Origin: an uncultured Actinomycetes bacterium
GTDB lineage: Bacteria > Actinomycetota > Thermoleophilia > UBA2241
DNA: 64,000 nt
Assembly: GCA_963767005.1 (NCBI GenBank)
Contig: CAVYCN010000003.1
Span: 96,001-160,000, forward strand
Reading direction: 5' to 3'
The position numbers and the translations under genes are program-made. Numbering within the stretch: the first letter of the stretch is position 1; each line of letters opens with the position of its first letter. Under the pieces are notes generated by a model, which did no database searches, was not told where the DNA came from, and saw only the letters and a list, made by a program, of their open reading frames with translations. Below are positions 8,504-64,000 of this stretch, piece by piece.

Positions 8504-9922
8504 TCAGGCCAACGCGTATCCCAACTCGCGCAGCTCTCGACGAGCGTCTTGGAGCGTAGCTTCGTAGTCGGGGTTGACCATGCGGCCCGTCGTTCGGTCG
8601 TACACCTCTCCGAAGATCCAGCCCGACTCTCCTTGCTCAAGCCGGTCGCTGTACTCCGAGTAAAGGCGGCTCACCACCTCGTTGGCCCGCTCGCGTGAGA
8701 ACGAGGCAGCTGCGATGCCGATCTCGGCCTGGAGCTGATGGTCGTCAGGAAGCAAGGAATCCATCTTAGCCGCTCTGGCGGGGTGGCCGGTGTATACCTG
8801 CGCCCCCGACGCCACGACCGAAGTCAAGTAGGCAGCGTCTTCGAGATGCGACATCCGGCTCCCGGCCTCGCCAGCAAGATAGGAGGTATTGAAGATAGAC
8901 ATGTTCATGTTGCGAGTCGCCGCCTGATTGGCCAGGGAGTTCGCCCAGATGATGGGGTGCGCCGTCGATACCAAGAGGCGCTGGTGAAGAGCCATGTTGA
9001 AGTGGTAGCGGGCCCTGAAAATCATCCAGCCGCCGATGATGTAGGCGGTGCACAAGATCGCAACGTTCTCGGCACCACCGGCGTACCCACCATACATTGG
9101 AGCCCCGACCGTGGCCACCGCTGCACCGAGACTGGCATAGAAAGCGGCGCGTTGCAGCGAAGCGTAGTTGACGACCATCTCGGATACGAAATCGATGAGA
9201 TAGCCGTCGGTAAGGCGCGCGCCGAACGCCGGATGACTGGCTGCGAACATAGAGCTGGACGCGATGGCGCTCGAGACGCAGTTGATAATGGGCATCCCCG
9301 GACGTCCTGCCCGGCGCAGACCCTCACGTGCTACGGACATGGCGCGAATTGCCGCCAGGATCTCCTGAGGCGAGCCGACCCTTGCCGGCACCCCATCGAC
9401 CGTCGGCAGCGAGGGTGCAGCTAGCGAGTCGGCAATCGGGATCGAGGCCATCTTCTCGACCATGCGGAGGCACGTAATCTCATCCGAGTGGTTCATGCCG
9501 CCGCCGACGTGAACCCACGGCCGCTGCTTGCTGTCCGGGCGACGAGGGATCATCGTCTTGCGGTCGACACCTTCCCCGAAGCCCACGGAGGGGAGCATGC
9601 TGGCGACGGCGCTCTCGATCTCGGCCTTGGTGAACTCCATGACCCGGTTCGTGTCGGAGCAGTAGAAGCCGACGAGCGAAATGAGCTCGACGGCGGCAGC
9701 GAACACCCGATCCGCCAGCTCGTCATCGCTGTTGACGAAGGCCTTGTGGTCCCACTCGATGCCGTTGTTCTTCACGGCCGATTTCAGCCCGGGAAGCAGG
9801 CGCGAAGAGATGAAGTCCTCCTGCCTAGTCAGGGGTCCTTCTTCGGCCCGTGCGAAGACCTCCGACAAGCTCATCCCATGCGTCACCGGCGACTTCTCTG
9901 GCAACGAGACGACGGACATCAC
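8504..9922 (-). CDS. Monomethylamine:corrinoid methyltransferase (MtmB) family protein without pyrrolysine
   Basis: Resembles MtmB over its whole length (RAEEGP, GFYCSDTNRVMEFT, AGRPGM, PMYGGYAGG, ARRELRELG). The archaeal GRPGMGV-Pyl site reads GRPGMPI-I and there is no internal TAG. Confidence 0.85.
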   Translation of the reverse strand: MMSVVSLPEKSPVTHGMSLSEVFARAEEGPLTRQEDFISSRLLPGLKSAVKNNGIEWDHKAFVNSDDELADRVFAAAVELISLVGFYCSDTNRVMEFTKAEIESAVASMLPSVGFGEGVDRKTMIPRRPDSKQRPWVHVGGGMNHSDEITCLRMVEKMASIPIADSLAAPSLPTVDGVPARVGSPQEILAAIRAMSVAREGLRRAGRPGMPIINCVSSAIASSSMFAASHPAFGARLTDGYLIDFVSEMVVNYASLQRAAFYASLGAAVATVGAPMYGGYAGGAENVAILCTAYIIGGWMIFRARYHFNMALHQRLLVSTAHPIIWANSLANQAATRNMNMSIFNTSYLAGEAGSRMSHLEDAAYLTSVVASGAQVYTGHPARAAKMDSLLPDDHQLQAEIGIAAASFSRERANEVVSRLYSEYSDRLEQGESGWIFGEVYDRTTGRMVNPDYEATLQDARRELRELGYALA

Positions 9923-46078: not shown

Positions 46079-47308
46079 ATGGTCGGGCACGTGAACTCAG
46101 GAGACACGGCGTTCATCCTGATCTGCGCGGCACTGGTCGCGCTGATGACGCCGGGGCTCGCGTTCTTCTACGGCGGCCTCGTGCGCCGCAAGAACTTCCT
46201 CGCGATCATGATGCAGTCGTTCATCTCGATGGGCGTCGTGACCACGATCTGGGTGTTCTTCGGCTACTCGCTCGCCTTTTCGGGCGGCGCCGGCGGGGTC
46301 ATCGGCAACTTCCACTGGGCCCTGCTCAGCCACGTCGGCCAGTTGCCCGGCCCGTGGGCGCCGACCATCCCGGCGCAGGCGCACTTCGTCTATCAGGAGA
46401 TGTTCGCCATCATCACCCCGGCGCTCATCACCGGCGCCTTCGCCGACCGCGTCAAGTTCAAGAGTTACCTCTGGTTCCTCGTGCTGTGGAGCATCATCGT
46501 CTACATCCCGTTCGTGCACTGGATCTGGGGCGGCGGCTGGCTCGCCCAGCACGGCGTACGCGACTGGGCCGGCGGCGCGGTCGTCCACATGAGCGCCGGC
46601 TACGCGGCCCTCGCCTCAGTGTTCGCCGTCGGCAAGCGCCGCTTCGCTCCGGGTGAGCGCAGCCTGCCGCACAACGTCGCCTTCGTGGCTCTCGGCACCG
46701 GCCTGCTGTGGTTCGGCTGGTTCGGCTTCAACGGCGGCGACGGATCGGCCGCCAACGGCTTCGCGGCCCAGGCCTGGGTCAACACCGACATCGCCGGCTC
46801 GATCGCGATGTGCACCTGGCTCGCCATCGGCTGGTGGCACGACGGCAAGCCCAGCCTGGTCGGCGCCCTCACCGGCGCTGTGGCCGGCCTCGCCACGATC
46901 ACGCCGTGCGCCGGCTTCGTGCCAACGTGGGCGTCGTTCATCATCGGCGTGAGCGCCGGTTCGGTGGCCTTCTTCGCCGTGATCTTCAAGCAGAAGATGC
47001 AGTGGGACGACGCGCTCGACGTGTGGGCCGCCCACGGTGTGGGCGGCACGCTGGGGATCATCCTGCTGGGCGTCTTTGCCGAATTCGCCATCAACCCCTC
47101 AGGCGGCCAGGGGCTGATTACCGGCCACGTCAGCTTCTTCGGCTGGCAGGTGCTGACCGCCGTCATCGTCGCCGCCTACGCGTTCGTGGCGACGTTCCTC
47201 ATTCTCAAGCTGATCAACCTCTTCGGACCGATCCGCGTGCCCGACTCGGTCGAGCTCAAGGGGCTCGACGAGAGCGAGTTCGGCGAGGCAGCGTACGACC
47301 TGATCTAA
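46079..47308 (+). CDS. amtB: Ammonium transporter (Amt), copy 1
   Basis: MTPGLAFFYGG, YQEMFA, HWIWGGG, VVH, WFGFNGG, DDALDV..HG. Confidence 0.93.
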   Translation: MVGHVNSGDTAFILICAALVALMTPGLAFFYGGLVRRKNFLAIMMQSFISMGVVTTIWVFFGYSLAFSGGAGGVIGNFHWALLSHVGQLPGPWAPTIPAQAHFVYQEMFAIITPALITGAFADRVKFKSYLWFLVLWSIIVYIPFVHWIWGGGWLAQHGVRDWAGGAVVHMSAGYAALASVFAVGKRRFAPGERSLPHNVAFVALGTGLLWFGWFGFNGGDGSAANGFAAQAWVNTDIAGSIAMCTWLAIGWWHDGKPSLVGALTGAVAGLATITPCAGFVPTWASFIIGVSAGSVAFFAVIFKQKMQWDDALDVWAAHGVGGTLGIILLGVFAEFAINPSGGQGLITGHVSFFGWQVLTAVIVAAYAFVATFLILKLINLFGPIRVPDSVELKGLDESEFGEAAYDLI

Positions 47309-47397
47309 GGGGTCAGCAAGCACGGCGCGGGGCGCCTGCGGCCGGCAAGCGCAAGGAGCCGGCCGACCCGCACCGACCGTGCGAACGTGCCGCTCAC

Positions 47398-47438
47398 GGG
47401 GGCGGGGCGAAAGCCTGCAAGGCTTTCGCCCCGCCCCC
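47398..47438. terminator. Perfect 19-bp stem hairpin between the two amt genes
   Basis: gggggcggggcgaaagcct / aggctttcgccccgccccc. Confidence 0.6.
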
Positions 47439-47592
47439 TCGATTTGCAGCCAAAACGTAGTGGGCGACCGGCACCGCGTGGCCATCCCGTGGCACCCGGC
47501 CGGTTGACCACGGCGGCGCCCGACGAGAGGGTGTCGAGAGGTGACAAGCCGCGAGTCGAGACGGAGCAACCCGCGAGGGAGGGAGCATCTCC

Positions 47593-48816
47593 ATGAACCA
47601 CATCAACCCGGGCGACACGGCCTTCGTCCTGATCTGCGCCGCCTTCGTCGCAATCATGACTCCCGGTCTTGCCTTCTTCTACGGCGGCCTCGTGCGGCGC
47701 AAGAACGTGATCACCATCATGATGCAGAGCTTCGTGTCGCTCGGCGTGGTCACGCTCATCTGGATCGTCTGCGGCTTCAGCCTGGCGTTCGGTCCCGACG
47801 TGCACGGCGTGATCGGCAACCTGCACCTCGCCTTCCTCAACCACGTGGGCCAGGCGCCGAACCCGCAGTACGCGACCACCGTGCCGTTCCTCGCGTTCTT
47901 CGTCTTCCAGCTCACCGTCGCGGCGCTGACGCCGGCCCTCATCACCGGCGCCTTCGCCGACCGCGTGCCGTTCAAGAGCTACATCGCCTTCCTCACGCTC
48001 TGGAGCCTGCTCGTCTACGTGCCGCTCGCCCACTGGATCTGGGGCGGCGGCTTCTTGCAGCAGTGGGGCGTGCTCGACTTCGGCGGCGGCATGGTGGTCC
48101 ACGCGAGCGCCGGCTTTGCCGCCCTGGCGTCGGTGTGGGTGATCGGCAAGCGCGTCTTCGCGCCGGGCGAAGAGGAGCGGCCCAGCAACATCCCGCTGAT
48201 CGCGATCGGCCTCGGCCTGCTGTGGTTCGGCTGGCTCGGCGACAACCCGGCGAACGCGATGCACGCGAACGGCGTCGCGGCGCAAGCCTGCGTCAACACC
48301 TTCATCGCCGGCGGCTTGGCGATGCTGGTCTGGATGTTCACCGACTGGGTGCGCACCGGCAAGGCCAGCATGGTCGGCGCCCTCACCGGTGTGCTCGCCG
48401 GTCTCGTCGCCGTGACTCCGGAGGCCGGCTACGTGCCGACCTGGGCGGCGGCCTTCACCGCCCTCGCGGCCGGCTGGATCTGCTACGGCGCGACCCACCT
48501 GCGCGCCAAGCGCGGCTGGGACGACTCGCTCGATGTCTGGGGCGTGCACGGCATCGGCGGCCTGTTCGGCACGCTGTGCGTGGGCTGGTTCGCCTACGCC
48601 TCGGTCGGCGGCCACAACGGCATGCTCGCCGGGAACGGCCACCAGTTCGTGCTGCAGTGCGCCGGCGTGGGCATCGCGGTCGGCTACGCCTTCGGTGTGA
48701 GCTTCGCCATCCTCAAGGTCGTCGACCTCGTGGCGAGCGTTCAGCTGTCACACCAGGTGCAGCTCGCCGGTCTGGACGAGGAGCTCCACGGCGAGTCGGC
48801 CTACGACCTCGTCTGA
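47593..48816 (+). CDS. Amt-family transporter, copy 2, with an altered Phe gate
   Basis: Full Amt fold with both His retained, but FQLTVA and WLGDNPAN replace FQxxFA and WFGFNxGS. Confidence 0.9.
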   Translation: MNHINPGDTAFVLICAAFVAIMTPGLAFFYGGLVRRKNVITIMMQSFVSLGVVTLIWIVCGFSLAFGPDVHGVIGNLHLAFLNHVGQAPNPQYATTVPFLAFFVFQLTVAALTPALITGAFADRVPFKSYIAFLTLWSLLVYVPLAHWIWGGGFLQQWGVLDFGGGMVVHASAGFAALASVWVIGKRVFAPGEEERPSNIPLIAIGLGLLWFGWLGDNPANAMHANGVAAQACVNTFIAGGLAMLVWMFTDWVRTGKASMVGALTGVLAGLVAVTPEAGYVPTWAAAFTALAAGWICYGATHLRAKRGWDDSLDVWGVHGIGGLFGTLCVGWFAYASVGGHNGMLAGNGHQFVLQCAGVGIAVGYAFGVSFAILKVVDLVASVQLSHQVQLAGLDEELHGESAYDLV

Positions 48817-52070: not shown

Positions 52071-53018
52071 CTACAGCGCCTGGAGTCGCTCGACGAGGGC
52101 CGGCACGACCTTGTACAGGTCGCCGACGATGCCGTAGTCGGCGAGGGCGAAGATGGGCGCGTCCTTGTCGGTGTTCACGGCCGCGATCACCTTGGCCTGC
52201 GAGACGCCGACGGTATGCTGCACCTGGCCCGAGATGCCGATCGCAAGGTAGACGTCGGGCACGGTCTTGGCGCCCGACAGTCCGACGATGCGGTCCTCGG
52301 GCAGCCAGCCGAAGTCGGCCAGGCTCTTCGTGCAGGCGAGCTCGGCGGCGAGCGCGGCCGCGAGGCCCTCGCCGAGCGTCACGTCCTCGCGCTTGCCGAG
52401 GCCCCGGCCGATGCCGACGATGCGCGGCGCGGCCGACAGGTCGACCGACTCGCCCTCCTTGGGCCGCCGGTCCGCCACTGTCACGGCCGGCGCCGTGAGC
52501 GCGGGCGACACGGCGACGACGTCGCCGCCGCCCGCCGGCGCGCCGGCCTCGAAGACCTTGGGCATGACCGCCACGACCTGGGTGGCCGAGGTGACCGCCT
52601 CGCGCTGGACCGTCGCGCCGCCCAGGTTGTAACGGCCGGCGACCAGGCGGCCGTCCTCGACGGCGAGCGACGTGGCGTCGGTGACACAGCCGGCGCCGAG
52701 GCGCTGGGCCAGGCGGCCGGCGAGCTCGCGGCCGCGACGGGTCGAGCCGAGCAGCACGACCGTCGCGCCCGCCTCGGCGGCGATGTGAGCCAGGGCCTGG
52801 GCGACGACCGCGGGGTCGAGGCCGGCCAGGGCCGGGTCGGCACAGGTGAAGACCGCCGCGGCACCGTGCGCGGCGAGGGCCGGCGCGGCCGCGGCGGCGT
52901 CGGGACCAAGCGCCGCGGCGCACACAGAGAGGCCGAGCTGCGGCGCGAGGCCATGGGCGGCGGCCAGGAGCTCGAGCGCGGTGTCGGGTTGCTCGCTGTA
53001 GACGAGGATCGATGCCAT
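52071..53018 (-). CDS. fixB: Electron transfer flavoprotein alpha subunit
   Basis: GIGRG, VGLSG, YLAIGISGQVQH, NTDKDAPIF..ADYGIVGDL. Confidence 0.92.
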   Translation of the reverse strand: MASILVYSEQPDTALELLAAAHGLAPQLGLSVCAAALGPDAAAAAPALAAHGAAAVFTCADPALAGLDPAVVAQALAHIAAEAGATVVLLGSTRRGRELAGRLAQRLGAGCVTDATSLAVEDGRLVAGRYNLGGATVQREAVTSATQVVAVMPKVFEAGAPAGGGDVVAVSPALTAPAVTVADRRPKEGESVDLSAAPRIVGIGRGLGKREDVTLGEGLAAALAAELACTKSLADFGWLPEDRIVGLSGAKTVPDVYLAIGISGQVQHTVGVSQAKVIAAVNTDKDAPIFALADYGIVGDLYKVVPALVERLQAL

Positions 53019-53023
53019 CGCCG

Positions 53024-53806
53024 CTACCTCCCCAGGACGCCTTCGGCGACCAGCGCGTTGACCAGGGCCTCGGCCTGGGCGGCCGGCTCGCCGTCGAACA
53101 GCACGTGCTTGCGGGCCTGTTCCTCGGCCAGGTTCGAGCGCACCTCGCGCAGCGGCGCGAGAGCCGCGGCGTCGAGTCCGAGGTCGGCGAGGCCGAGCTC
53201 GGCCACCGGCTTCTTGCCGGCCTTCATGATGCTCATCAGCGAGGGGATGCGCGGCTCGTTGATCTCGCTCACCACGGTGGCGGCCGCCGGCAGCGGCACC
53301 TCGAGGGTCTCGACGACGTCGCCCATGCTGCGCTCGGCGCGCAGGCAGCCGTCGGCCACGGTGACCGCGCGCGCGTAGCCGATCTGGGGCAGGCCCAGCA
53401 GCTCGGCGGTGCGCGACGGCACCTGGCCCGAGTAGCCGTCGGTCGAGCCCTCGCCGAACAGCACGAGGTCGAACGGGCCCGACTTCTCGATGGCGCGCGC
53501 CAGCACGAGCGCGACGCCGGCCTGGTCGGCCGCTTCGAGCGCCGGGTCCGAGACGATGACCGCCTCGTCGGCGCCGATCGCGAGGGCCTCCTTCATGGTC
53601 TCGCGCGCCTTGCGATCGCCCTGCGCCGCCGCGACCGCCACGATGCGACCACCGCCGGCCGCCTCGACCAGCCGCAGGGCCGCCTCGAGCGCGTTCTTCT
53701 CGAGGTCGCCCACCTTGAAGGGCACCGCCTCGAGCAGCGGCCTGCGGTCCTTGACGCGCACGAGCTGCAGGTCGGGATTGGTCTTGACGCACACCGCGAT
53801 GTCCAC
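53024..53806 (-). CDS. fixA: Electron transfer flavoprotein beta subunit
   Basis: IAVCVK, NALEAAL, ALAIGAD, STDGYSGQVP, NEPRIPS. Confidence 0.92.
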   Translation of the reverse strand: MDIAVCVKTNPDLQLVRVKDRRPLLEAVPFKVGDLEKNALEAALRLVEAAGGGRIVAVAAAQGDRKARETMKEALAIGADEAVIVSDPALEAADQAGVALVLARAIEKSGPFDLVLFGEGSTDGYSGQVPSRTAELLGLPQIGYARAVTVADGCLRAERSMGDVVETLEVPLPAAATVVSEINEPRIPSLMSIMKAGKKPVAELGLADLGLDAAALAPLREVRSNLAEEQARKHVLFDGEPAAQAEALVNALVAEGVLGR

Positions 53807-53906
53807 GGCTTACGCACCTCCGCAGGTCGACGTTTGCCCAAACGACGGGACGGCCTTTCGTGCGGGGGCGGGGCGGGCCTTGCGGCCCGCCCCGCCCCCG
53901 CACGCT

Positions 53907-54194
53907 CTAGCTCATGCGATACTGCACCCCGAAGCCACCCCTCGGGTAGGTCCACGACAGCGCCTGCGGCTCGCAGCAGATCAGGCAGGTGCCGCACTCG
54001 AGGCAGCCCTCCCAGTTGACGGTCATGTCGCCCTGATCGCTGCGCTCGTACAGATCGGCCGGGCACACCTGCAGGCAGGCGCGACGCACGCAGACCGTGC
54101 GGCACTTCTCGACGTCGATCACGATGTGCGGTTCCTGGTCGAGCTTGAAGACGTCGAGGCCGAGCTTGGCGTCGACCTTGCCGGGTTCGCTCAT
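53907..54194 (-). CDS. fixX: Ferredoxin-like FixX
   Basis: CLQVCPA, GCLECGTC, WTYPRGGFGV. Confidence 0.92.
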   Translation of the reverse strand: MSEPGKVDAKLGLDVFKLDQEPHIVIDVEKCRTVCVRRACLQVCPADLYERSDQGDMTVNWEGCLECGTCLICCEPQALSWTYPRGGFGVQYRMS

Positions 54195-54206
54195 GACGGC
54201 ATCACC

Positions 54207-55496
54207 TCACACCTTGCGCAGCGACCACAGGTCTTTGAGCGTCGCCAGTTTGAGGAACTCGCGGCGGGCCCCGCGCAGGCCGGTGCTCACCAGCCGCTCG
54301 CCGCCCTCGTCGCCGATCGCGAAGACGTCCTCGAGCAGACGCGCCACGGCGCCGGGGTACTCACTGAACAGTCGGCGGTTCTCGATCGCCTGCGGCACCG
54401 CGCGACCGGCCTCCATCGCGCGCATGACGAAGGTCTCGCGCAGGTAGCGGTCGTAGCAGGCGAGCGAGCTCCCCGAGAAGGAGCCAGCCGCACGCGCCGC
54501 CAGGGCCGCCTGCGCCGCCGCCCAGCCGCTCGCCACGGCGAGGTCCATGCCGCGCACGGTGACGAGGGCGTTCAGGGCAAAACCGGCCGTCTCGCCGGCC
54601 AGCAGGTAGCCGTCGCCCCAGGGCCGCGGCAGATGGTCGTAGCCACCCTCGAACACCGCGTGCGCCGAGTACTCGGCAAGCTCGCCGCCGCGCAGGAGCG
54701 GCTTGACCTGGGCCGCCTCCTTGAAGGCGTCGAGCAGCTGCCACGACTCGAGGCCGTCGGTGCGCTCGCGCAGCTGCGCCATGCTCACCACGACGCCGAG
54801 GGCGATCGACTCGCAGTTGGTGTACAGAAAACCGCCGCCGGTCATGCCGCGCGTGACCTCGCCCATGAAGAGCTGGGCCGCGCCCTCGCCCTCAGCCAAA
54901 TTCCAGCGGTCCTCGATCACGCCGGCCGGCAGCTCGATGATCTCCTTGAAGCCGACGGCGTGGTCGGCGGCGCGGGGCTGCTCGCGCAGCCCCGCGCCGC
55001 CGGACAGCAGGCCGAGCACACCCTCGGCCACGATCGTGACGTCGGCGCCGACCTCGTCGTCGCCGGCCCGGACGCCGATCACGCGGTCGCCGTCGCGCAG
55101 CAGCTCGTCGGCCTTCATGTCGGTGACGACCATCGCGCCGGCGGCCGTGACCTTGTCGGCCAGCCACTGGTCGAACCGCGCGCGCTGCACCGTGTACGAC
55201 AGCGGCGTCGGCGTGAGGAACTTCTCGGAGGCGAGCTCGATGGTCGTCGCCGCGCCGTCGGCCAGCAGCGTCACGAGCTCACGCGCGACGGGCCGCTCGT
55301 AGGGCGCGTCGTCCCAAAGCTCGGGGTAGAGGCGGCGCAGAGGCCGCACGTAGAGCCGGCCGCCGGTGACGTTCTTGGCGCCGGCGTAGTTGCCGCGCTC
55401 GAGCACCATCACCTCGACGCCCTGCGTGGCAAGCCCGTAGGCGGCGGCCAGGCCGGCCGGACCGCCGCCGACCACGATGCACTCGACCTTCTCCAT
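54207..55496 (-). CDS. fixC: FixC-like ETF:quinone oxidoreductase flavoprotein
   Basis: VGGGPAG, ERGNYAGAKNVTGG, GGGFLYTN, RGMDLA. Confidence 0.92.
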   Translation of the reverse strand: MEKVECIVVGGGPAGLAAAYGLATQGVEVMVLERGNYAGAKNVTGGRLYVRPLRRLYPELWDDAPYERPVARELVTLLADGAATTIELASEKFLTPTPLSYTVQRARFDQWLADKVTAAGAMVVTDMKADELLRDGDRVIGVRAGDDEVGADVTIVAEGVLGLLSGGAGLREQPRAADHAVGFKEIIELPAGVIEDRWNLAEGEGAAQLFMGEVTRGMTGGGFLYTNCESIALGVVVSMAQLRERTDGLESWQLLDAFKEAAQVKPLLRGGELAEYSAHAVFEGGYDHLPRPWGDGYLLAGETAGFALNALVTVRGMDLAVASGWAAAQAALAARAAGSFSGSSLACYDRYLRETFVMRAMEAGRAVPQAIENRRLFSEYPGAVARLLEDVFAIGDEGGERLVSTGLRGARREFLKLATLKDLWSLRKV

Positions 55497-55599
55497 GTCA
55501 GCCCTCCCTCAGGCGAAGCGGGCTACCGCGCCGGGGCGCCGGCGGGCGGGGCGCGCCGCACACGCGCCCGCCCGCCGTTCCGGCCGGCGACCGGACTGG

Positions 55600-55708
55600 C
55601 CGCGCCTCGCGGCGCGCCTAGTCCCGCGATCGACTTCGTCGTCGCGGCTCAGGCTAGCGTGACTTCGTCGCGCGCTCAATGCGCGCGACTCCGCGGCGCG
55701 CCTAGTCC
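55600..55708 (-). repeat. Diverged copy of the 50-kb repeat family, starting at the acyl-CoA dehydrogenase stop
   Basis: Minus strand reads gactaggcgcgc...gcgcgcgacgaagtcacgctagcctgagccgcgacgacgaagtcgatcgcgggactaggcgcgc. Confidence 0.75.
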
Positions 55709-56934
55709 TTGAACGGGTTGTGCGTCTCGCCCCACTCGTCGCGGGCGATGATGCCGCGCATGATCATGAGGCCGCCCTCGGCGCCGACCTCGTAGCTCAT
55801 GACGCCGCGGAGCAGCATCTCGAGGGGGGTCTCCTTCGTGTAGCCGAAGGCGCCGTGGTACATCATGCCGTGCCGCGCGATGTCGTGGCAGAGGGCCGGC
55901 GACAGGCACTTGCAGGTGCTGATGATCTTGTTGATCTCGCGCCGGTCGAACGTGCCCGGATTGGCGTGCTCCTGGCCGATCATCCAGGCGCCGCGCAGCA
56001 GGTTCAGCTTGAGCATGTCGAGCTGCATCCAGTCGTCGGCCATCTCGAACGAGATGCCCTCCCACTTGCCGAGCGGCTTGCCGAAAGTGCTGCGCTGCGC
56101 GGTGTACTCGCCGCTGATCTCGAGCCCCCGCTCGGCGCCGCCCAGGCAGGCGGCCGCCACGAGCACGCGGGCGGCGTTGAAGCCGTCCATGTTCACGTAG
56201 AAGCCCTTGCCCTCTTCGCCGAGGACGTACTTGCGGGGCAGCTCGACGTCCTTGTAGATCCAGCCGCCCGTCGACAGGCCCATGCGGCCCATGTCCTTGT
56301 AGGTGGTGTAGGTGATGCCGGGCAGGTGGGCGGGCACCCAGATGAAGGTCATGCCCTTGTGGCCCTGGTTCGGGTCGGTCTTGACCAGGGTGCAGTGGCC
56401 GCTCGGCGGACCCCACTTCGCGCACTCCTTGGGGCCGGAGACGTAGGCCTTCTCGCCGTTCATGACGAAGGCCTGCTTCTCTTCGTTCCAGGGGGCGATC
56501 GTCTTGATGGCGGACAGGTCGGAGCCGCCGCCCGGCTCGGTCGTGTTGATGCCGGCGAAGGCCTTGCCGGCGGCCACGGCCGGCAGGACCTCCTGCTTGA
56601 GCTCCTCGGTGCCGTAGCGGTTGATCATGTACGACCAGCCGATGGTGAGCAGCGTGTAGACCGGGGTGCTCATCGACAGGTCGGCGCGGGCGATCTCGTG
56701 CACCGTGATCATCGCGTAGATCAGGCGCTCGTCGTCGGGCAGCGGCATGCCGCCGTACTCCTCGGGAATCGTCACACCGAAGATGCCGAGCTCGGCCATG
56801 CCGGCCGTGATGTCGTCGGGGATGCCGTCCTCGGCCTCGTCGATCGCGCGGGCGCGCGGCTCGAGGTTCTTGGCCAGCCACTCGCGGATGGCCTGGCGGT
56901 AGAGGTTCTGCTCGGTCGTGTACCTGAAGTCCAT
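55702..56934 (-). CDS. Acyl-CoA dehydrogenase family protein
   Basis: IPEEYGG, TEPGGGSD, NGEKAYVS, RSTFGKPL, HGAFGY, GAEGG. GAGGAG SD before ATG 56934. Confidence 0.92.
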   Translation of the reverse strand: MDFRYTTEQNLYRQAIREWLAKNLEPRARAIDEAEDGIPDDITAGMAELGIFGVTIPEEYGGMPLPDDERLIYAMITVHEIARADLSMSTPVYTLLTIGWSYMINRYGTEELKQEVLPAVAAGKAFAGINTTEPGGGSDLSAIKTIAPWNEEKQAFVMNGEKAYVSGPKECAKWGPPSGHCTLVKTDPNQGHKGMTFIWVPAHLPGITYTTYKDMGRMGLSTGGWIYKDVELPRKYVLGEEGKGFYVNMDGFNAARVLVAAACLGGAERGLEISGEYTAQRSTFGKPLGKWEGISFEMADDWMQLDMLKLNLLRGAWMIGQEHANPGTFDRREINKIISTCKCLSPALCHDIARHGMMYHGAFGYTKETPLEMLLRGVMSYEVGAEGGLMIMRGIIARDEWGETHNPFKD

Positions 56935-57178
56935 CGGCTCCTCCTCGTGCGACCGCCGGCCGGCCGCGTCGTCGCTTGTCCCCTCGCGTACCGGCGTCTC
57001 CCTCAAGAACGAGAAACGCCCCCAGGGGTGCGCCTGTGGCGCGCTCGCTGGGGGCTCATGGCCGTGGCGACCGCGGCCGAAGGACCGCCGTCGAGCCATG
57101 CGTGCAGCTCGCGCCAATCATATAGGGGCCGCTCCGGCCGCGACAACCGGCCAGGCCGTCCAAGCCTGCGTCCGACGC

Positions 57179-57520
57179 TTATGCGTCGCGGCCCTTGGCG
57201 CGAAACGGCGCCGACAGGTCGACCGCCTCGAACACCTGGTGCAGGGCGAACAGCAGCGCGGCCTGCGAGTGGCCCAGGTAGAACTCGCGCACCGTGGCCT
57301 CGATCTCGCGGCGCTCGCAGACCACGGAGCGGCCGATCAGCAGGCGCGCGAAGAAGTCGCGGGCGAGGTCCATGAGCAGGGTGCTCGAGCAGGCGGTGAC
57401 GACGCCCTGCTCGTCGACCTCGACCACGATGCCGACGCGACGGTGGAGGTTCTGGTGCGACACGTCCTGCGGCAGGCGGGCGTAGCCCGAGAAGAGGTAG
57501 CTCTTCACGTCGTTCGTCAC
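57179..57520 (-). CDS. Small conserved protein, DUF3870-like
   Basis: SGYARLP, CSSTL, YLGHSQAAL pattern. GGAGG overlaps the GTG start. Confidence 0.6.
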   Translation of the reverse strand: MTNDVKSYLFSGYARLPQDVSHQNLHRRVGIVVEVDEQGVVTACSSTLLMDLARDFFARLLIGRSVVCERREIEATVREFYLGHSQAALLFALHQVFEAVDLSAPFRAKGRDA

Positions 57521-57825
57521 CTCCGGCGACGGCCTCGTTTCGGTCGCGACGCCGACAGTCTACCGCGTCGCGTCACCCATCGGGCCAGTACTGCGCGCGC
57601 GGCTTGGCAGGGCCGTCCGCTGATGCGGCCTTGCGCCGCCGGGGCGAGGCGGTAGGATGACGGCGCTGCATCCGCGACCTGCGACCGTCCGACAGCCGGT
57701 CGCGCCGGCCGTGGGCCCCCAGCAGGTGCGTACGGCCGCCTGGGGGCTTTTCGCGTTCGGAGGCCGTTCCCGCGCCTTCACAAGGGCAAGCTCAAGCGGC
57801 AGGCGACACGACAAGGAGGGCGGTC

Positions 57826-58818
57826 GTGACCCCATCGTCCGGCGCCGGCGGCGCTCCGACCGGGGCCAGGTTCATGAGCCTCGGCGAGGCCGTCGCGCGC
57901 TTCGTGCCCGACGGCGCGGTGGTCGCCCTCGGCGGTTTTACCATCAACCGCAACCCGATGGCCTTCGTCTACGAGATGGCGCGCCGCGGCGTGCGCGACC
58001 TGCACCTCGTGGCGCACTCCAACGGCCAGGCGCTCGACACGCTCGTCGGCTGCGGCTGCGTGAGCCGCATCGAGGTCGCCTACGGCGGCAACGGCCGCTT
58101 CGCCCCCACCTGCGTGCGCTTCCGCCGCGCGGTCGAGCGCGGCGAAGTCGCGGTCGAGGACTACTCGAACTACCAGATGGCCCTGCGTTTTCTGGCCGGC
58201 GCTCTCAACGTGCCGTTCATCCCGACCAAGTCGGGGCTGCACACCGACCTCGTCGCGCGCCAGGGCTTCGGCGCCGACTACCGGGCGGCCCAGGGCCTGC
58301 CCGACAAGAAGCTCGTCGTCATGCCCGACCCCTTCGACGGCGACGGCGACGACGTCGTCCTGCTGCCGGCGCTCAAGCCCGACCTCGCCGTCGTCCACGC
58401 CCAGACCGTGGCCGACGACGGCACGGTGCGCATCAAGGGGCTCACCTTCGCCGATCTCGAGCAGGCCAAGGCGGCCCGCGCCGTGGTCGTCACCTGCGAG
58501 GAGATCGTGCCGGCCGCCGACCTGCGGCTCGACCCCGACCAGAACGCCCTGCCGCCGTTCCTGGTCGATGCCGTCGTGCTCGCGCCCCACGGCGCCCACC
58601 CGACCGCCTGCCGCTACTTCTACGACTACGACCCGACGTTCCTGAACGACTACCGCCGGGCCGCCCACGACGACGACGCCTGGGCGGCCTTCGTCGACGA
58701 GTGGATCCGCGGCCCCGCCGGCCACGAGGCCTACGTAGCCAAGCTGGGCGCCGAGCGCCTGGCGAAGATCAAGGCCGACCCGATGCGCGGCTACGCCATC
58801 GGGCTGGACAGGCGGTGA
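57826..58818 (+). CDS. Family I CoA-transferase subunit A (glutaconate CoA-transferase GctA-like)
   Basis: GGFTINRNPMA, EDYSNY, PDLAVVHAQ, GAHPTAC..YDYD. Confidence 0.88.
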   Translation: MTPSSGAGGAPTGARFMSLGEAVARFVPDGAVVALGGFTINRNPMAFVYEMARRGVRDLHLVAHSNGQALDTLVGCGCVSRIEVAYGGNGRFAPTCVRFRRAVERGEVAVEDYSNYQMALRFLAGALNVPFIPTKSGLHTDLVARQGFGADYRAAQGLPDKKLVVMPDPFDGDGDDVVLLPALKPDLAVVHAQTVADDGTVRIKGLTFADLEQAKAARAVVVTCEEIVPAADLRLDPDQNALPPFLVDAVVLAPHGAHPTACRYFYDYDPTFLNDYRRAAHDDDAWAAFVDEWIRGPAGHEAYVAKLGAERLAKIKADPMRGYAIGLDRR

Positions 58819-58822
58819 GACG

Positions 58823-59620
58823 ATGAGCGCGAGCCACCCGAGCACGCAGGCAACGGGCATCCCGCCCTTCACCTCGCGCGAGATGATGGCGATCGCGGCC
58901 GGCCGTTTCGTGCGCGACGGCGACATCCTGTTCGCCGGCACCGGTGTGGCGCTGCTGGCCGCCGGCTGCGCCAAGCGCGTGCACGCGCCCGGCGCCGTGG
59001 TGTTCGTCGAGACCGGCGGCATCGACCCCACGCTCGACGAGATCCCCATGGCGGTCGCCGACCCGCGCGTCATGGACGGCACCTGCATCAACGCCGGCAT
59101 CATCGAAGCCTTCTCGTACATCGCCAACCCGCGGCTGCACACGATCGCCTTTTTGGGCGCCGCCCAGATCGACCGCTACGGCAACCTGAACTCGACCTGT
59201 ATCGGCGACTACGACCACCCCACGGTGCGCTTCTCGGGCAGCGGCGGCGCCTGCGACGCCGCCTCGCTGGCCTCGGCCTTCATCGTGTTCATGCAGCACG
59301 GCCGGCGCAAGTTCGTGGAGCGCCTCGACTACCGCACGAGCCCCGGCTGGCTCGAGGGCGGCGAGCGGCGCCACGAGGCCGGCTTCGCCCGCGGCGGTCC
59401 GCTCGCGGTGGTCACCGACCTCTGCGTGCTGCGCTTCGACGAGACGACCCACGAGATGTACCTGGCCGAGCGCTACCCCGGCGTGACCGACGAGCAGGTC
59501 CAGGACAACACGGGCTTCCCCCTCGACGTGTCGCGCGCGGTCGACGCCGTGCCGCCGAGCGCCGAGGAGCTGCGCATATTGCGCGACGAGGTCGACCCGC
59601 AGCGCCTGATCCTGGGGTAG
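58823..59620 (+). CDS. Family I CoA-transferase subunit B (GctB-like)
   Basis: FAGTG, FVETG (catalytic Glu), AQIDRYGNLNST, GSGGA, VTDLCV, QDNTGF. Confidence 0.88.
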   Translation: MSASHPSTQATGIPPFTSREMMAIAAGRFVRDGDILFAGTGVALLAAGCAKRVHAPGAVVFVETGGIDPTLDEIPMAVADPRVMDGTCINAGIIEAFSYIANPRLHTIAFLGAAQIDRYGNLNSTCIGDYDHPTVRFSGSGGACDAASLASAFIVFMQHGRRKFVERLDYRTSPGWLEGGERRHEAGFARGGPLAVVTDLCVLRFDETTHEMYLAERYPGVTDEQVQDNTGFPLDVSRAVDAVPPSAEELRILRDEVDPQRLILG

Positions 59621-60129: not shown

Positions 60130-60861
60130 TCAGACTGGCCCCGGCGGCCCGCCCGGGTCGACGCCGGCCCGCCGAAAGGCGCGGTCGCGCAGCTCGCGCA
60201 CCACGCCCTCCCAGTAGTCGAACACGGCGTCGACGTCGAAATCGGGGTCGGCCGCGATCTGCTCGGCGAGGCCGTCGCAGACTGCGACGGTGATCGCGCA
60301 CAGCGGGTCGAGCTCGCGCTTGAGACGAGCGTCGACGTCGGGCGCGAGCGCCCACTCGTCGAGATCGCGGTACCAGCGGTACAGCTCAGCCATGCGCGTG
60401 CGCAGCTCGTCGTCGCGGATGAGCTGCGGGAACAGGTCCCAGAAACGCCGGTAGCCCACCTGCGCCTTGGTGCTGTGGCGATGCATGGCGAGCAGCATCT
60501 CGACGCGGTCGGCGCCGGCCACCTCGGGCTGGCGCAGCGCCCGCAGCAGCGCCATGTTGTCGTCGTGCACGACCGAGTCGGCAAGCGCCTCGACCAGGCC
60601 GGCCTTGTTGCCGAAGTGGTAGCGGATGCTCGCCTTGTTCTCGTGCGCCTCGGCGGCGATCGCCTCGAAGGTGAGGCCGCCGAAGCCGCGCTCGTCGAGC
60701 AGGCGCTTGCTGGCTTCGAGGATGCGCTGCGCGGTGGGCGACAGGTCGGCGGCCGGGTCGGCGCCGGCCGCCGGCCGGCCGCCCACCTCCCAGCGCCGCT
60801 TCGGCGGCGTCGCTCCGCTGTCGTCGGGCCGCCCAGCGGCGGCCTTGCGCTCCCGCGCCAT
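60130..60861 (-). CDS. TetR-family regulator, divergent from mtbB
   Basis: RILEASKRLL, LTFEAIA, SIRYHFGNKAGL. ATG at 60861. Confidence 0.9.
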   Translation of the reverse strand: MARERKAAAGRPDDSGATPPKRRWEVGGRPAAGADPAADLSPTAQRILEASKRLLDERGFGGLTFEAIAAEAHENKASIRYHFGNKAGLVEALADSVVHDDNMALLRALRQPEVAGADRVEMLLAMHRHSTKAQVGYRRFWDLFPQLIRDDELRTRMAELYRWYRDLDEWALAPDVDARLKRELDPLCAITVAVCDGLAEQIAADPDFDVDAVFDYWEGVVRELRDRAFRRAGVDPGGPPGPV

Positions 60862-60966: not shown

Positions 60967-61023
60967 TTGACAGGCCGAACCGTCGCGGGCGAGACTACCA
61001 CAAGTCATTCATCCGACTGACTT
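60967..61023 (+). promoter_or_regulatory. mtbB promoter and candidate TetR operator
   Basis: TTGACA at 60967, weak -10 GAGACT at 60991, inverted repeat aagtca-N10-tgactt at 61002-61023. Confidence 0.55.
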
Positions 61024-61081: not shown

Positions 61082-62521
61082 ATGGAGCAGAGCATCATCA
61101 CGCGACTGGCCGACGGATCGCTCGTGCGCATGACGCCGAGCGAGATCCACGCCGACCTCGAAGAGGGCAGCGCCGCCGGCGCCAAGAAGGCCAAGGCACC
61201 CCCGCTCGAACCCGACGAGCTCGACCGCCTGCTCGAGATCTTCGCCTCGAACGCCCACTTCACGGCGGTCGACATCGGCGACGAGCTCATCCTGTCGTGC
61301 GACGGCTCGGGCAACATGGACTCCGGCACGCGCATCGACGAGCTCTACAGCTACCAGAGCCACCGCGGCGCCGACATCGTCGAGCTGTACCACATCGACT
61401 ACTCGTACAAGGCCGTCAAGACGGTCATGTCGTTCGAGCAGCAGGTGATGAAGAACGCCCAGCTCAACCTGGTGGCGCCGCTGCAGTACGGGGCGATGCC
61501 CGACCTGGGCCGCTACTCGCAGCCCGACGGGCCCATTCCCAACTGGTCGGAGCTGCTGCCCCTGGGGCGCATCGACGAAGCGCGCGCCGCCCAGGAGGAG
61601 GCAGTCGAGCACGCCGTACGCGACATGGTCTTCGTCGCCGAGGGCATGATCGAGGCCGGCGCCGACGGCATGGACTTCGACACCTCGGGCGCCGCCGGCG
61701 ACGCCGACTTCCTCGCCACGCTGCTCGCCGTCGAGGAGATCAGGCGGCGCCATCCCGATATCGGCATCGAGCTCGGCATGGCGAGCGAGTTCGTGCTCGG
61801 CATGCACGGCGAGCTCGAGTTCCACGGCAAGCGCCTCGCCGGCCTGTGGCCGCGCGACCAGGTCGCCGTGGCGGCCGAGGCGGGCGCGACCATGTTCGGG
61901 CCGGCGGTCAACGTCAACACGACACGCTCCGTGGCCTGGAACGTGGCGCGCGCCCTGGCGATCGTCAAGCCCTGCGTGCAGGAGTCGCCCATCCCGGTGC
62001 ACATGAACGCCGGCATGGGCGTGGGCGGCGTGCCGATGACCGCATACCCGCCGACCGACGCCGTGTCGCGCATGGCGCGCGCGATGCGCGAGGTCGGCCG
62101 CCTGGACGGCTTATAGGTGGGTGTGGGTGACCCGCTCGGCATGGCGTGCAGCCATGCGCTCGCCGCGGGCATGGGCGGAATGCGGACCGCCGGAGACCTG
62201 GTGGCCCGCATGCAGATGACCCGCGGCATGCGACTCGAGCAGGCCAAGACCTACGTCGCCGAACGGCTCGGCGTGAGCGTCCTCGACCTCTGCGACCCGC
62301 TCGTCATGCACGACGTGCGGCGCGAGCTCGGCCTGGGGCTGATCCCCGTGCAGGAGCTCACCTACCCGAGCGAGCCCGGCTCGATCGAGGCCAAGTTCCA
62401 CATCGCCGAGGTGCTCGACGTGCCCATCAACTGCGTGCGGCAGTTCAAGAATCGCGTCGCCCCGCGCTCGCGCGCGCGGCAGGTCGGCGCGACGGCGACC
62501 AGACCGGAGGTGCCCGCGTGA
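61082..62521 (+). CDS. mtbB: Dimethylamine:corrinoid methyltransferase with pyrrolysine (TAG 62114-62116, codon 345 of 479 aa)
   Basis: Two ORF-track pieces are joined in frame across one TAG: LDGL-*-VGVGDPLGM...RTAGDLVARMQM, matching the MtbB DGI-Pyl-IGVGDPLGM site. Also YGAMPDLG, FDTSGAAGDADF, GMGVGGVPM. Confidence 0.93.
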
Positions 62522-63987
62522 AACGTAACCTCTTCGCCGGCCGGCCGCGCAGCGGCGGCCTGCGCCTGAACGTCTTCACCGAGGCCGAGGTCGACGACAT
62601 CCACTCGGCGACGCTCGAGGTGCTCGAACGCACCGGCGTGTTCGTCGAGGCCGACGAGGCGCTCGACATCTTCTCGGACGGCGGCTGCGACGTGGACCGC
62701 GAGACGCACGTGGTGCGCATCCCGCCGCACGCCGTCGAGGACGCGATCCGCTCGGCGCCCGCGAAGATCGTGCTCTGCGGCCGCGAGCCGAAGAACGATG
62801 TCGTGCTCGAGCCGGGCCGCGTCGCCTTCACCAACTTCAGCGAGGGCATCCGCGTAGTCGATCCGTGGTCGGGCGAGATCCGCGACTCGACCAAGGCCGA
62901 CATCGGCGACATCGCCCGCCTGAACGACTACCTGTCCGACATCGACACGCACGAGATCGCGGTCGGCGCCAGAGACGTGCCGCCCGAGACCTGCGCGGTG
63001 CACAACGCCGAGATGCAGTACCTGAACACGACCAAGCCGATCGGCATCGGACCGCTGTCGCGCACCGAGACGATCGCCATCTTCCGCATGGGCGCCGAGA
63101 TCGTCGGCGGCGCCGATGAGCTGCGCCGGCGCCCGATCGTCTACAACGGCGTCTGCCCGGTGAGTCCGCTCAAGCTGCCGCACGAGGCCACCGAGGTGAT
63201 CATCGAGACGGCCCGCTGGGGTATTCCCAACAACATCCTCTCGATGGCGATGGCCGGCGGCTCGTCGCCGGTCACCCTGGCCGGCACCCTGGTCACCCAC
63301 AACGCCGAGGTGCTGTCGGGCATCACGCTGGCGCAGCTCTCTGAGCGGGGCGCGCCCTGCATCTACGGCAGCTCGACGACGGCGATGGACCTCAAGCTGG
63401 CGGCGGCCTGCGTGGGCTCGCCCGAGCTCGCCATGATCTCGGCCGCCGTGGCCCAGATGGCCAGGCGCTACCTGCTGCCGAGCTTCGTGGCCGGCTTGTA
63501 GGCTGACTCGAAGCTCGGTGACGCCCAGGTCGGGCACGAGAAAACCCTCACCGGCATCATGGCAGCGTTGGCAGGGGCCAACCTGATCTACGGTTCGGGG
63601 ATGATCGAGTCGGGCGTCACCTTCGATTGCGGGCAGTTCGTCATGGACAACGAGTTCGCCCGCATGATCAAGCACTGCGTCGGCGGCATCACGGTGAGCG
63701 ACGACACGCTCGCCGTCGACGACATCGCGGCGGTGGGGTCGTTCGGCGACTTCCTGTCGCTCGACGCCACCCTGCGCCACATGCGCGAGCTCTCCCAGCC
63801 GGAGCTCCTCGACCGCCGCGTGCGCGAGGACTGGGAGGAGCGCGGCGCTACCGACCTGCACGCCCGTTGCCTGGCCAAGGCGCGCGAAATCCTCACAAAC
63901 TTCACGCCGGCGCAGCTCGACGACGACGTCAAGGGGCGCATTCGCGATATCGTGGTCGAGACCGATCGTCTGGTCGGTGTCGCCTGA
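62518..63987 (+). CDS. mttB: Trimethylamine:corrinoid methyltransferase with pyrrolysine (TAG 63499-63501, codon 328 of 489 aa)
   Basis: GTG start overlaps the mtbB TGA, with a GGAGG SD. PSFVAGL-*-ADSKLGDAQVGHEKT matches the MttB VAG.-Pyl-.D.K..D.Q.GHEK site. SPVTLAGTLVTHNAEVLSG, YGSST, GSPE. The frame stays open to TGA 63987. Confidence 0.94.
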
Positions 63988-64000
63988 AAGGAGAGGCCCA

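Follow-up and report, generated by a model that had tools for sequence, protein, structure and literature searches.

Probable RNA-level marks around the pyrrolysine codons of an mtbB-mttB operon from an uncultured Thermoleophilia bacterium

Two recoded methyltransferase genes and the decoding problem

We analyzed a 64,000-nucleotide stretch of DNA (hereafter the window; positions 96001-160000 of the contig labeled here C3) from an uncultured bacterium of the class Thermoleophilia, phylum Actinomycetota, whose 3.44 Mb genome of 71% GC lies on 19 contigs and by marker genes shows a completeness of 100% and a contamination of 4.87%. The genome belongs to UBA2241, which we take to be the name of its order. 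At the right end of the window lie mtbB and mttB, two overlapping genes that code for methylamine methyltransferases, each with an internal UAG that is very likely read as pyrrolysine (Pyl). Pyl in this taxon has already been reported; what is added here is a candidate cis signal, namely a rare codon directly before the recoded TAG and a hairpin downstream of it. The features concerned are:

61082..62521, plus strand: mtbB, Pyl-type dimethylamine:corrinoid methyltransferase, 479 aa (TIGR02368 above cut-off; PF09505, E 2.8e-170)
62111..62116, plus strand: TTA, a rare Leu codon, directly before the Pyl amber codon of mtbB (TAG at 62114-62116)
62180..62211, plus strand: predicted 13-bp hairpin in mtbB, +64 to +95, with tetraloop AGAC at 62194-62197 (z -3.9 versus shuffles; covariation in 113 sequences)
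62518..63987, plus strand: mttB, Pyl-type trimethylamine:corrinoid methyltransferase, 489 aa (TIGR02369 above cut-off; TAG aligned with X of 7xcl)
63496..63501, plus strand: TTG, a rare Leu codon, directly before the Pyl amber codon of mttB (TAG at 63499-63501)
63567..63582, plus strand: predicted 6-bp hairpin in mttB, +66 to +81, with tetraloop AGGG at 63573-63576 (rare codons; pairing probability)

A first-pass annotation, made from the letters alone, had described one in-frame TAG in each gene and a GTGA coupling between them. With the frames translated through TAG as O both points hold, the GTG start of mttB overlapping the TGA stop of mtbB at 62518-62521. The assignment to the Pyl methyltransferases is borne out by the read-through products, which score 438.6 bits against TIGR02368 (mtbB; NCBIfam equivalog cut-off 369.1) and 687 bits against TIGR02369 (mttB; cut-off 525). 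The TAGs also fall at the Pyl column, as had been supposed: that of mttB lines up with the residue given as non-standard (X) in PDB chain 7xcl, and that of mtbB occupies a column common to 75/75 mtbB genes extracted from metagenomes, archaeal-type ones included. An in-frame TAG is present in every family match among the matches listed, beyond which there are 490 and 209 further ones. Standard annotation splits such TAG-interrupted genes.

The pyl genes that the first-pass annotation had proposed to look for (pylB, pylC, pylD, pylT, pylSn and pylSc) lie about 80 kb downstream of the operon. The five protein-coding ones all score above their NCBIfam cut-offs, with pylSc and pylSn as separate genes, and the tRNA-Pyl(CUA) found by ARAGORN at C3:242986-243058 has a small D loop, a long anticodon stem and a short variable loop. 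The other two partners named there are also present: a corrinoid-protein gene starts at the last base of the window, and the genome encodes a RACo/RamA-type activator. All eight mtbB genes of the genome contain one TAG, as do seven of the 41 MTTB-family matches and one of the four mtmB-family matches, bringing the TAG-interrupted methyltransferases to 16 in three families; three MtmB and over 30 MttB homologues are free of Pyl.

The actinobacterial host inferred earlier agrees with the nearest named relatives of PylSc, all 11 of which are labeled Actinomycetota, Actinomycetes or Thermoleophilia, and four housekeeping neighbors of pylSc share 63-95% identity with their counterparts at the loci of named relatives. 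PylSc was recovered in 73/79 genomes of the window's family (f1) and in 9/61 of a second family (f4), in 0/260 other genomes of the same class, and in 1/400 genomes sampled across the phylum. With the window genome counted, mtbB occurs in 86, Pyl-type mttB in 84 and Pyl-type mtmB in 11 of 89 family genomes. The GC content at third codon positions (GC3) of the operon and pyl genes is 0.94-0.97 (mtbB 0.95, mttB 0.94), and the genome median is 0.946. The pyl system is old in this family, and its family-wide presence therefore upholds the earlier view that it is no recent import. A plasmid search for MtbB/MttB copies gave no match. Two family members (G020 and G027; 1.7-1.8 Mb, 98% complete), in which pylSc, pylB, mtbB and Pyl mttB were not found, offer natural Pyl-negative controls. 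The novelty of the taxon did not survive: going by the available parts of two papers, PylRS has been listed for two Actinobacteria, one of them a Thermoleophilia bacterium (PMC9630628), and Pyl mttB and mtbB are expressed in Actinobacteriota metagenome-assembled genomes (PMC10805028), so that the finding as first posed was already known.

The earlier claim of a 22nd-amino-acid code stands for the Pyl system itself but not for a changed code, as about a third of the genes still have TAG as their stop (805/2476 non-Pyl genes called by a purpose-built codon-model gene caller, 33%), which excludes a genome-wide reassignment of TAG as in the archaeal code 34. Indeed, pylSc, pylSn and pylC are themselves terminated by TAG, and the RF1 gene is present and looks intact. 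An avoidance of TAG after the gain of Pyl was not seen either: in samples of 120-140 kb each, TAG accounts for 24/56 stops in a Pyl-positive relative versus 12/73 and 18/78 in two relatives without pylSc. The ribosome must hence distinguish 16 UAGs from some 800 UAG stops. According to the parts available of PMC12626013 and bioRxiv 10.1101/2024.09.30.615893 no mechanism is known by which Pyl would be inserted in a targeted way, and those of PMC13663744 and PMC8318568 describe none.

Rare codons and a downstream hairpin around the recoded codons

Across the 50 codons 3' of the TAG, the GC3 of the 16 Pyl genes falls from about 0.96 to 0.78-0.88. We compared relatives of these genes (58 mtbB, 48 mttB and 11 mtmB, with duplicates and non-spanning matches removed and one gapped mtmB-family row dropped) and found the excess of rare codons only between about -2 and +45 codons around the TAG in mtbB and mttB, with mtmB being noisier; at the matching region of 32 non-Pyl MttB genes the profile is flat, with no such excess. 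Selection at the nucleotide level is limited to this stretch of about -2 to +45 codons. The 71% GC of the genome exposes selected synonymous sites that are hidden in low-GC genomes.

One of these sites immediately precedes the TAG. TTA and TTG make up 0.1% and 2% of the Leu codons of the genome, yet wherever Leu occupies the -1 position it is coded by one of these two: in mtbB, 61/61 cases in the family and 23/23 in f4 (1.6 and 2.4 expected from each gene's own codon use, as for all such counts here), and in the family 33/33 cases in mttB (expected 0.7) and 12/12 in mtmB (expected 0.5). At true TAG stops, Leu at -1 is so coded in 1/53. In some subfamilies the -1 residue is Ala, Gly or Tyr rather than Leu. 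Further downstream, codon +26 of mtbB is GGA in all of 66, 23 and 53 genes of three sets (expected 1.7, 1.8 and 8.9), and codon +24 of mttB is GCA in 48/48, 5/5 and 16/19 (expected 1.2, 0.3 and 2.9). The rare codons of the mttB hairpin are kept in the family as TTG in 46/48 and GCA in 48/48 genes, and the stem of the mtbB hairpin is likewise formed by rare codons.

The hairpins carry a loop of the form A-G-purine-N (AGRN), which starts at +78 in mtbB, +72 in mttB and +114 in mtmB. Defined as an AGRN loop on a stem of at least five pairs, the motif follows 16/16 Pyl TAGs versus 23/805 TAG stops, although the former are not 16 independent trials because the motif was defined on these same genes, which belong to three paralogue families. 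Other controls gave 41/1569 for TGA stops, 3/102 for TAA stops, 90/5000 for internal codons and 0/54 for the TAG stops of three relatives. Among related Pyl genes the motif is present in 52/58, 7/8 and 23/23 mtbB and in 47/48 and 5/5 mttB, and among homologues lacking the TAG in 1/40 MttB and 0/3 mtmB.

Pairing across the 13-pair helix amounts to 91.4% in 113 distinct mtbB sequences (those without Ile-ATA before the TAG, see below), with changes on both sides in 120 cells and with G-U pairs tolerated; all registers slid along the alignment are 30-46% paired. Its covariation of 0.239 versus 0.114 was reached in 0/500 shuffles, which is not a probability because the shuffle ignores kinship. Pairing probabilities of native sequences versus synonymous recodings (14 sequences per group, 5 for archaeal mttB) are 1.0 versus 0.16 for mtbB, 0.97 versus 0.03 for mttB and 0.40 versus 0.01 for mtmB. 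These patterns argue for a selected structure specific to recoded codons, strongly in mtbB, moderately in mttB and weakly in mtmB. A hairpin directly 3' of the TAG was rejected as a bacterial signal: it has no consensus in 126 bacterial mtbB genes, and in mttB two alternative registers are possible, neither convincing.

Outside the class, we scanned the best 80 of 512 confirmed metagenome loci. The 75 that yielded the mtbB TAG were divided by their -1 codon into 22 with Ile-ATA and 53 others, and counts of the -1 codon on this set are circular because of that division. Of 11 ATA loci whose neighbors were scanned, seven encode MtbC above the cut-off of NF041607, presumably a family of methanogen scope, two a class I LysRS and one an archaeal-type sliding clamp; loci of the other group have EF-G, FabH or methyltetrahydrofolate:corrinoid methyltransferase (MeTr) as neighbors. 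In a tree the 12 ATA rows form one clade (support 1.0), and all 60 non-ATA rows keep the loop AGAY at GC3 values from 0.36 to 0.97. GGA at +26 is found in 142/142 non-ATA mtbB versus 9/22 ATA ones (expected 5.6). In the 22 ATA sequences the helix is 65% paired with covariation at the shuffle level, and archaeal-type pairing probabilities, native versus recoded, are 0.19 versus 0.16 (mtbB) and 0.0 versus 0.05 (mttB). The archaeal-type mtbB genes (e.g. at loci L156 and L176) have features of their own: their -1 codon is Ile-ATA (in 22, as they were so defined, against 3.0 predicted by usage) and, unlike the bacterial genes, they have a long hairpin directly 3' of the TAG, seen in 18 (z -2.7).

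A filtered read-through scan of the window genome returned 188 coding-like TAG candidates and recovered 11 of the 16 known sites; in the displayed part of the 188, no additional Pyl protein with both marks was seen outside the methyltransferases. A naive scan for extensions past TAG was discarded, as it was swamped by in-frame neighboring genes. At C10:69000-72600, tandem repeats of about 315 nt in at least 10 copies surfaced as read-through candidates on the non-coding strand.

Roles proposed for the marks

We hold it to be quite probable, on the strength of these comparisons of sequence, that selected RNA-level marks surround bacterial Pyl codons. That the rare -1 codon and the hairpin have some role in read-through at Pyl UAGs is a narrower claim, to which we give somewhat better than even chances. 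Still narrower, and tentative in that it falls short of even chances, is the proposal of a two-part code in which a TTG/TTA-type codon in the P site and a distal AGRN hairpin would be read by a factor; this would amount to a bacterial PYLIS shared by mtmB, mtbB and mttB, lacking in methanogens, and usable as a portable, site-selective enhancer of amber suppression. For the role in read-through as such, recognition of the loop would lie with a protein or with the ribosome and, along with the TTG/TTA codon in the P site, would tilt the competition between RF1 and Pyl-tRNA towards read-through at these sites only.

Several observations weigh against the proposed role in read-through, beginning with the interdependence of the 16 sites noted above. 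The strict motif is present in only 4/11 mtmB and in only 13/24 metagenome Pyl mttB (5 of these 24 genes belong to archaeal-type loci). The mttB region is no stabler than its synonymous recodings (z +0.2; whole-region z -0.24), and its stem is near-invariant, with one double change in 72. The loops, at +72, +78 and +114, are distant from the A site and have no fixed spacing, and the contrast between bacteria and archaea rests on a single branch. No candidate for the factor emerged: the genome has one SelB only, and no RNA-binding gene recurs in the pyl clusters, which were the part of the proteome surveyed. The parts available of PMC12626013 and bioRxiv 10.1101/2024.09.30.615893 state that Pyl insertion needs no motif. 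Finally, the hairpin is kept in one MttB gene whose TAG is replaced by a Leu codon. Its protein (locus L196) shares 57% identity with that of the window, has TTG at the Pyl site and a near-intact hairpin, and is encoded next to a normal Pyl mtbB; either Pyl was lost recently or the sequence contains an error.

The distance of the loop also lends itself to a different account, in which Pyl insertion is a matter of simple competition, governed by the supply of Pyl-tRNA, and the selected hairpin acts on the fate of the mRNA around or after the decoding pause, through nuclease protection of a ribosome-free stretch or, where the UAG is taken as a stop, by directing decay or transcription termination. 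The long and variable spacing from the A site suits such a role, 65-120 nt would correspond to the stretch left bare by a stalled or terminating ribosome, and, as bacteria and archaea differ in their decay machinery too, the contrast in the helix fits equally well. Against it, the -1 codon, which occupies the P site while the UAG is decoded, is just as strongly selected; moreover, it is the loop sequence rather than stability that has been kept, a point that does not decide between this account and a role in read-through. On balance we regard action on mRNA fate alone as unlikely.

A further possibility is that there is no cis signal at all, the conserved nucleotides following from conserved amino acids, from common descent or from gene conversion between paralogues, as may be true of the PYLIS models. 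These models (PYLIS_2 and PYLIS_3) match any homologue through its coding sequence, the structure has been called neither necessary nor discriminating (PMC3639795, in the part available), and many of the positions in the helix fall on the first or second base of a codon and are paired in archaea too. However, the synonymous sites keep codons of 2-3% usage at GC3 values from 0.36 to 0.98 and across protein identities of 44-100%, while the remainder of each gene has drifted to the codon usage of its host; archaeal genes with the same residues are free at those sites, and double changes preserve the pairing. This renders the absence of any signal improbable.

We think it similarly improbable that the conserved nucleotides represent a DNA-level site (for protein binding or an internal promoter) or an internal ribosome-binding site restarting translation past the TAG. 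The mtbB motif does have GGAG five bases 5' of an in-frame GTG, but mttB and mtmB lack such a pair of Shine-Dalgarno sequence and start, their loops are free at the last base, and the three stems are alike in shape and not in sequence, with G-U pairs tolerated as in RNA. That the genes are pseudogenes or assembly errors is refuted by conservation, since the TAG column is the same across the family and the archaeal homologues, and the genome has the complete pyl machinery.

The positions listed at the outset name the exact bases whose synonymous change would probe the PYLIS idea with the protein left untouched. If true, a role of the two marks in read-through would revise the notion that Pyl can do without a cis signal and would provide a rule for predicting bacterial Pyl proteins; it may also supply a site-specific enhancer for genetic-code expansion.

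Operon context, methylamine metabolism and comparison with known systems

Around the operon the following further features were delineated:

60130..60861, minus strand: TetR-family regulator gene, divergent (PF00440, E 4.9e-13)
60967..61023, plus strand: putative -35 hexamer (60967-60972) and a 6-bp inverted repeat (61002-61023), candidate operator, seen by eye
63988..64000, plus strand: ribosome-binding site of the cognate corrinoid gene (C3:160000-160629), together with the first base of that gene

The product of the TetR-family gene is likely the repressor of the operon, and several other Pyl operons of the genome, judged by eye, are adjoined by TetR-like or other regulator genes. A sigma-70 consensus scan upstream of the operon found no full promoter. 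The corrinoid gene is followed by a non-Pyl MttB homologue (C3:160909-162333). Among 29 related mttB loci, 1.5-kb flanks contain mtbB in 20 and a corrinoid gene in 22, and we are highly confident that the locus is a native mtbB-mttB-corrinoid operon and a real Pyl operon. Elsewhere, the window has two tandem ammonium transporters (46079-48816), a block just 5' of the operon coding for an ETF/FixC-type protein, an acyl-CoA dehydrogenase and a two-subunit CoA-transferase (52071-59620), and a TAG-free MtmB-family gene on the minus strand next to a corrinoid gene (8519-9868, i.e. C3:104519-105868).

MttB and MtbB transfer a methyl group of tri- or dimethylamine to a corrinoid protein, which RACo reactivates; their activity on these substrates here is inferred from family membership. 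The genome has 13 corrinoid-protein hits, a MeTr gene, genes for MetF, FolD and Fhs, and an Mvh-Hdr cluster. The methyl group would thus pass to tetrahydrofolate and be oxidized via MetF, FolD and Fhs to formate or CO2, with the electrons going to the hydrogenase-Hdr system. We favor this folate-branch oxidation over acetogenesis because acetyl-CoA synthase (PF03598) was not found in the genome, which is complete by markers. A whole Thermoleophilia family would be equipped to compete with methanogens for methylamines. The genome also has tRNA-Sec, SelABD and a TGA-containing molybdopterin enzyme of the selenocysteine (Sec) type (C19:162081-163349, minus strand) with a SECIS-like hairpin about 12 nt past the TGA, and beside Pyl this makes it likely, as far as gene content tells, that 22 amino acids are in use. 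A seemingly TGA-interrupted MttB at C10:37067 was rejected as a Sec protein, its TGA being an upstream stop.

At the pyl locus (C3:236048-245240; L003), neither mark was seen at the TAG stops of pylSc, pylSn and pylC, and feedback via read-through of these genes' own stops is possible. A radical SAM gene there (C3:239185-240063; L003:11185-12063) adjoins pylSn and a corrinoid gene and within the class is confined to f1 (66/79) and f4 (41/61); it was rejected as a Pyl-specific factor, as 41/61 f4 genomes have it versus nine with pylSc, and it was not found in four Pyl-positive genomes. In relatives (loci L018-L036 and L242-L244), pylBCD is repeatedly accompanied by genes for an aldehyde:ferredoxin oxidoreductase with its ferredoxin subunit, for a MoaD-like protein and for a nitroreductase. 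A second pylB and pylD, without pylC, lie on contig C4 in a cluster of lower GC3 (0.80-0.89; C4:543000-555000, L252) together with a TetR gene, another Pyl mttB, which carries both mRNA marks, a corrinoid gene, two amino-acid permeases and a non-Pyl MttB; this cluster looks more recently acquired.

The operon shares its protein families, Pyl column, corrinoid partner and RACo with the Pyl MtbB/MttB-corrinoid systems known from Methanosarcina and from bacteria in which PylSc and PylSn are split (TIGR02368, TIGR02369, TIGR02367, TIGR03912; 7xcl), and the synthetase is split as in all bacteria listed in the available part of PMC9630628. It differs from them in its high-GC actinobacterial host with 16 Pyl and over 30 non-Pyl methyltransferases, in the retention of TAG as a major stop, and in a tetrahydrofolate-type methyl acceptor with acetyl-CoA synthase not found. 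The earlier actinobacterial reports share class and genes with the window genome; in their available parts, PMC9630628 and PMC10805028 mention neither the near-universality in one family (73/79), nor the second family (9/61), nor an mRNA signal.

Closest to the proposed signal are the Rfam PYLIS models, of which each gene family has one, with archaea and bacteria taken together. PYLIS_2 (RF02509, mtbB) matches 62114-62213 with 60.7 against a gathering threshold of 36, and PYLIS_3 (RF02510, mttB) matches from the TAG with 68.1 against 38; coding conservation alone may suffice for both. The PYLIS_2 structure already draws the distal mtbB hairpin, whereas the helices of PYLIS_3 differ from the mttB hairpin at +66 to +81, which lies inside its match. 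As far as the accessible part of PMC3639795 goes, such structure is possibly influential. What we add is the loop motif common to three families, the selection on rare codons, the bacteria-only distribution and the -1 codon. Literature searches, with most subscription journals and the original PYLIS papers outside their reach, returned nothing on a bacterial tetraloop hairpin, a -1 codon bias, selection on the mtbB hairpin or a motif shared by the three families.

The bacterial SECIS/SelB system likewise places a hairpin in the coding sequence 3' of a recoded stop, but the genome's own SECIS begins about 12 nt after the UGA and has another loop, while the distance is 65-120 nt for the Pyl hairpin, and the genome has no second SelB. 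A further parallel is seen in the extended 3' stimulators of eukaryotic and viral read-through, which were found by synonymous-site conservation, act with near-cognate tRNAs and were shown experimentally (PMC3159437, in the part available). The proposed role is the same, and so is the diagnostic, for which sites conserved in the roughly 150 nt 3' of the stop are used; unlike those cases, the present one involves a bacterial host, a cognate tRNA and a predicted effect.

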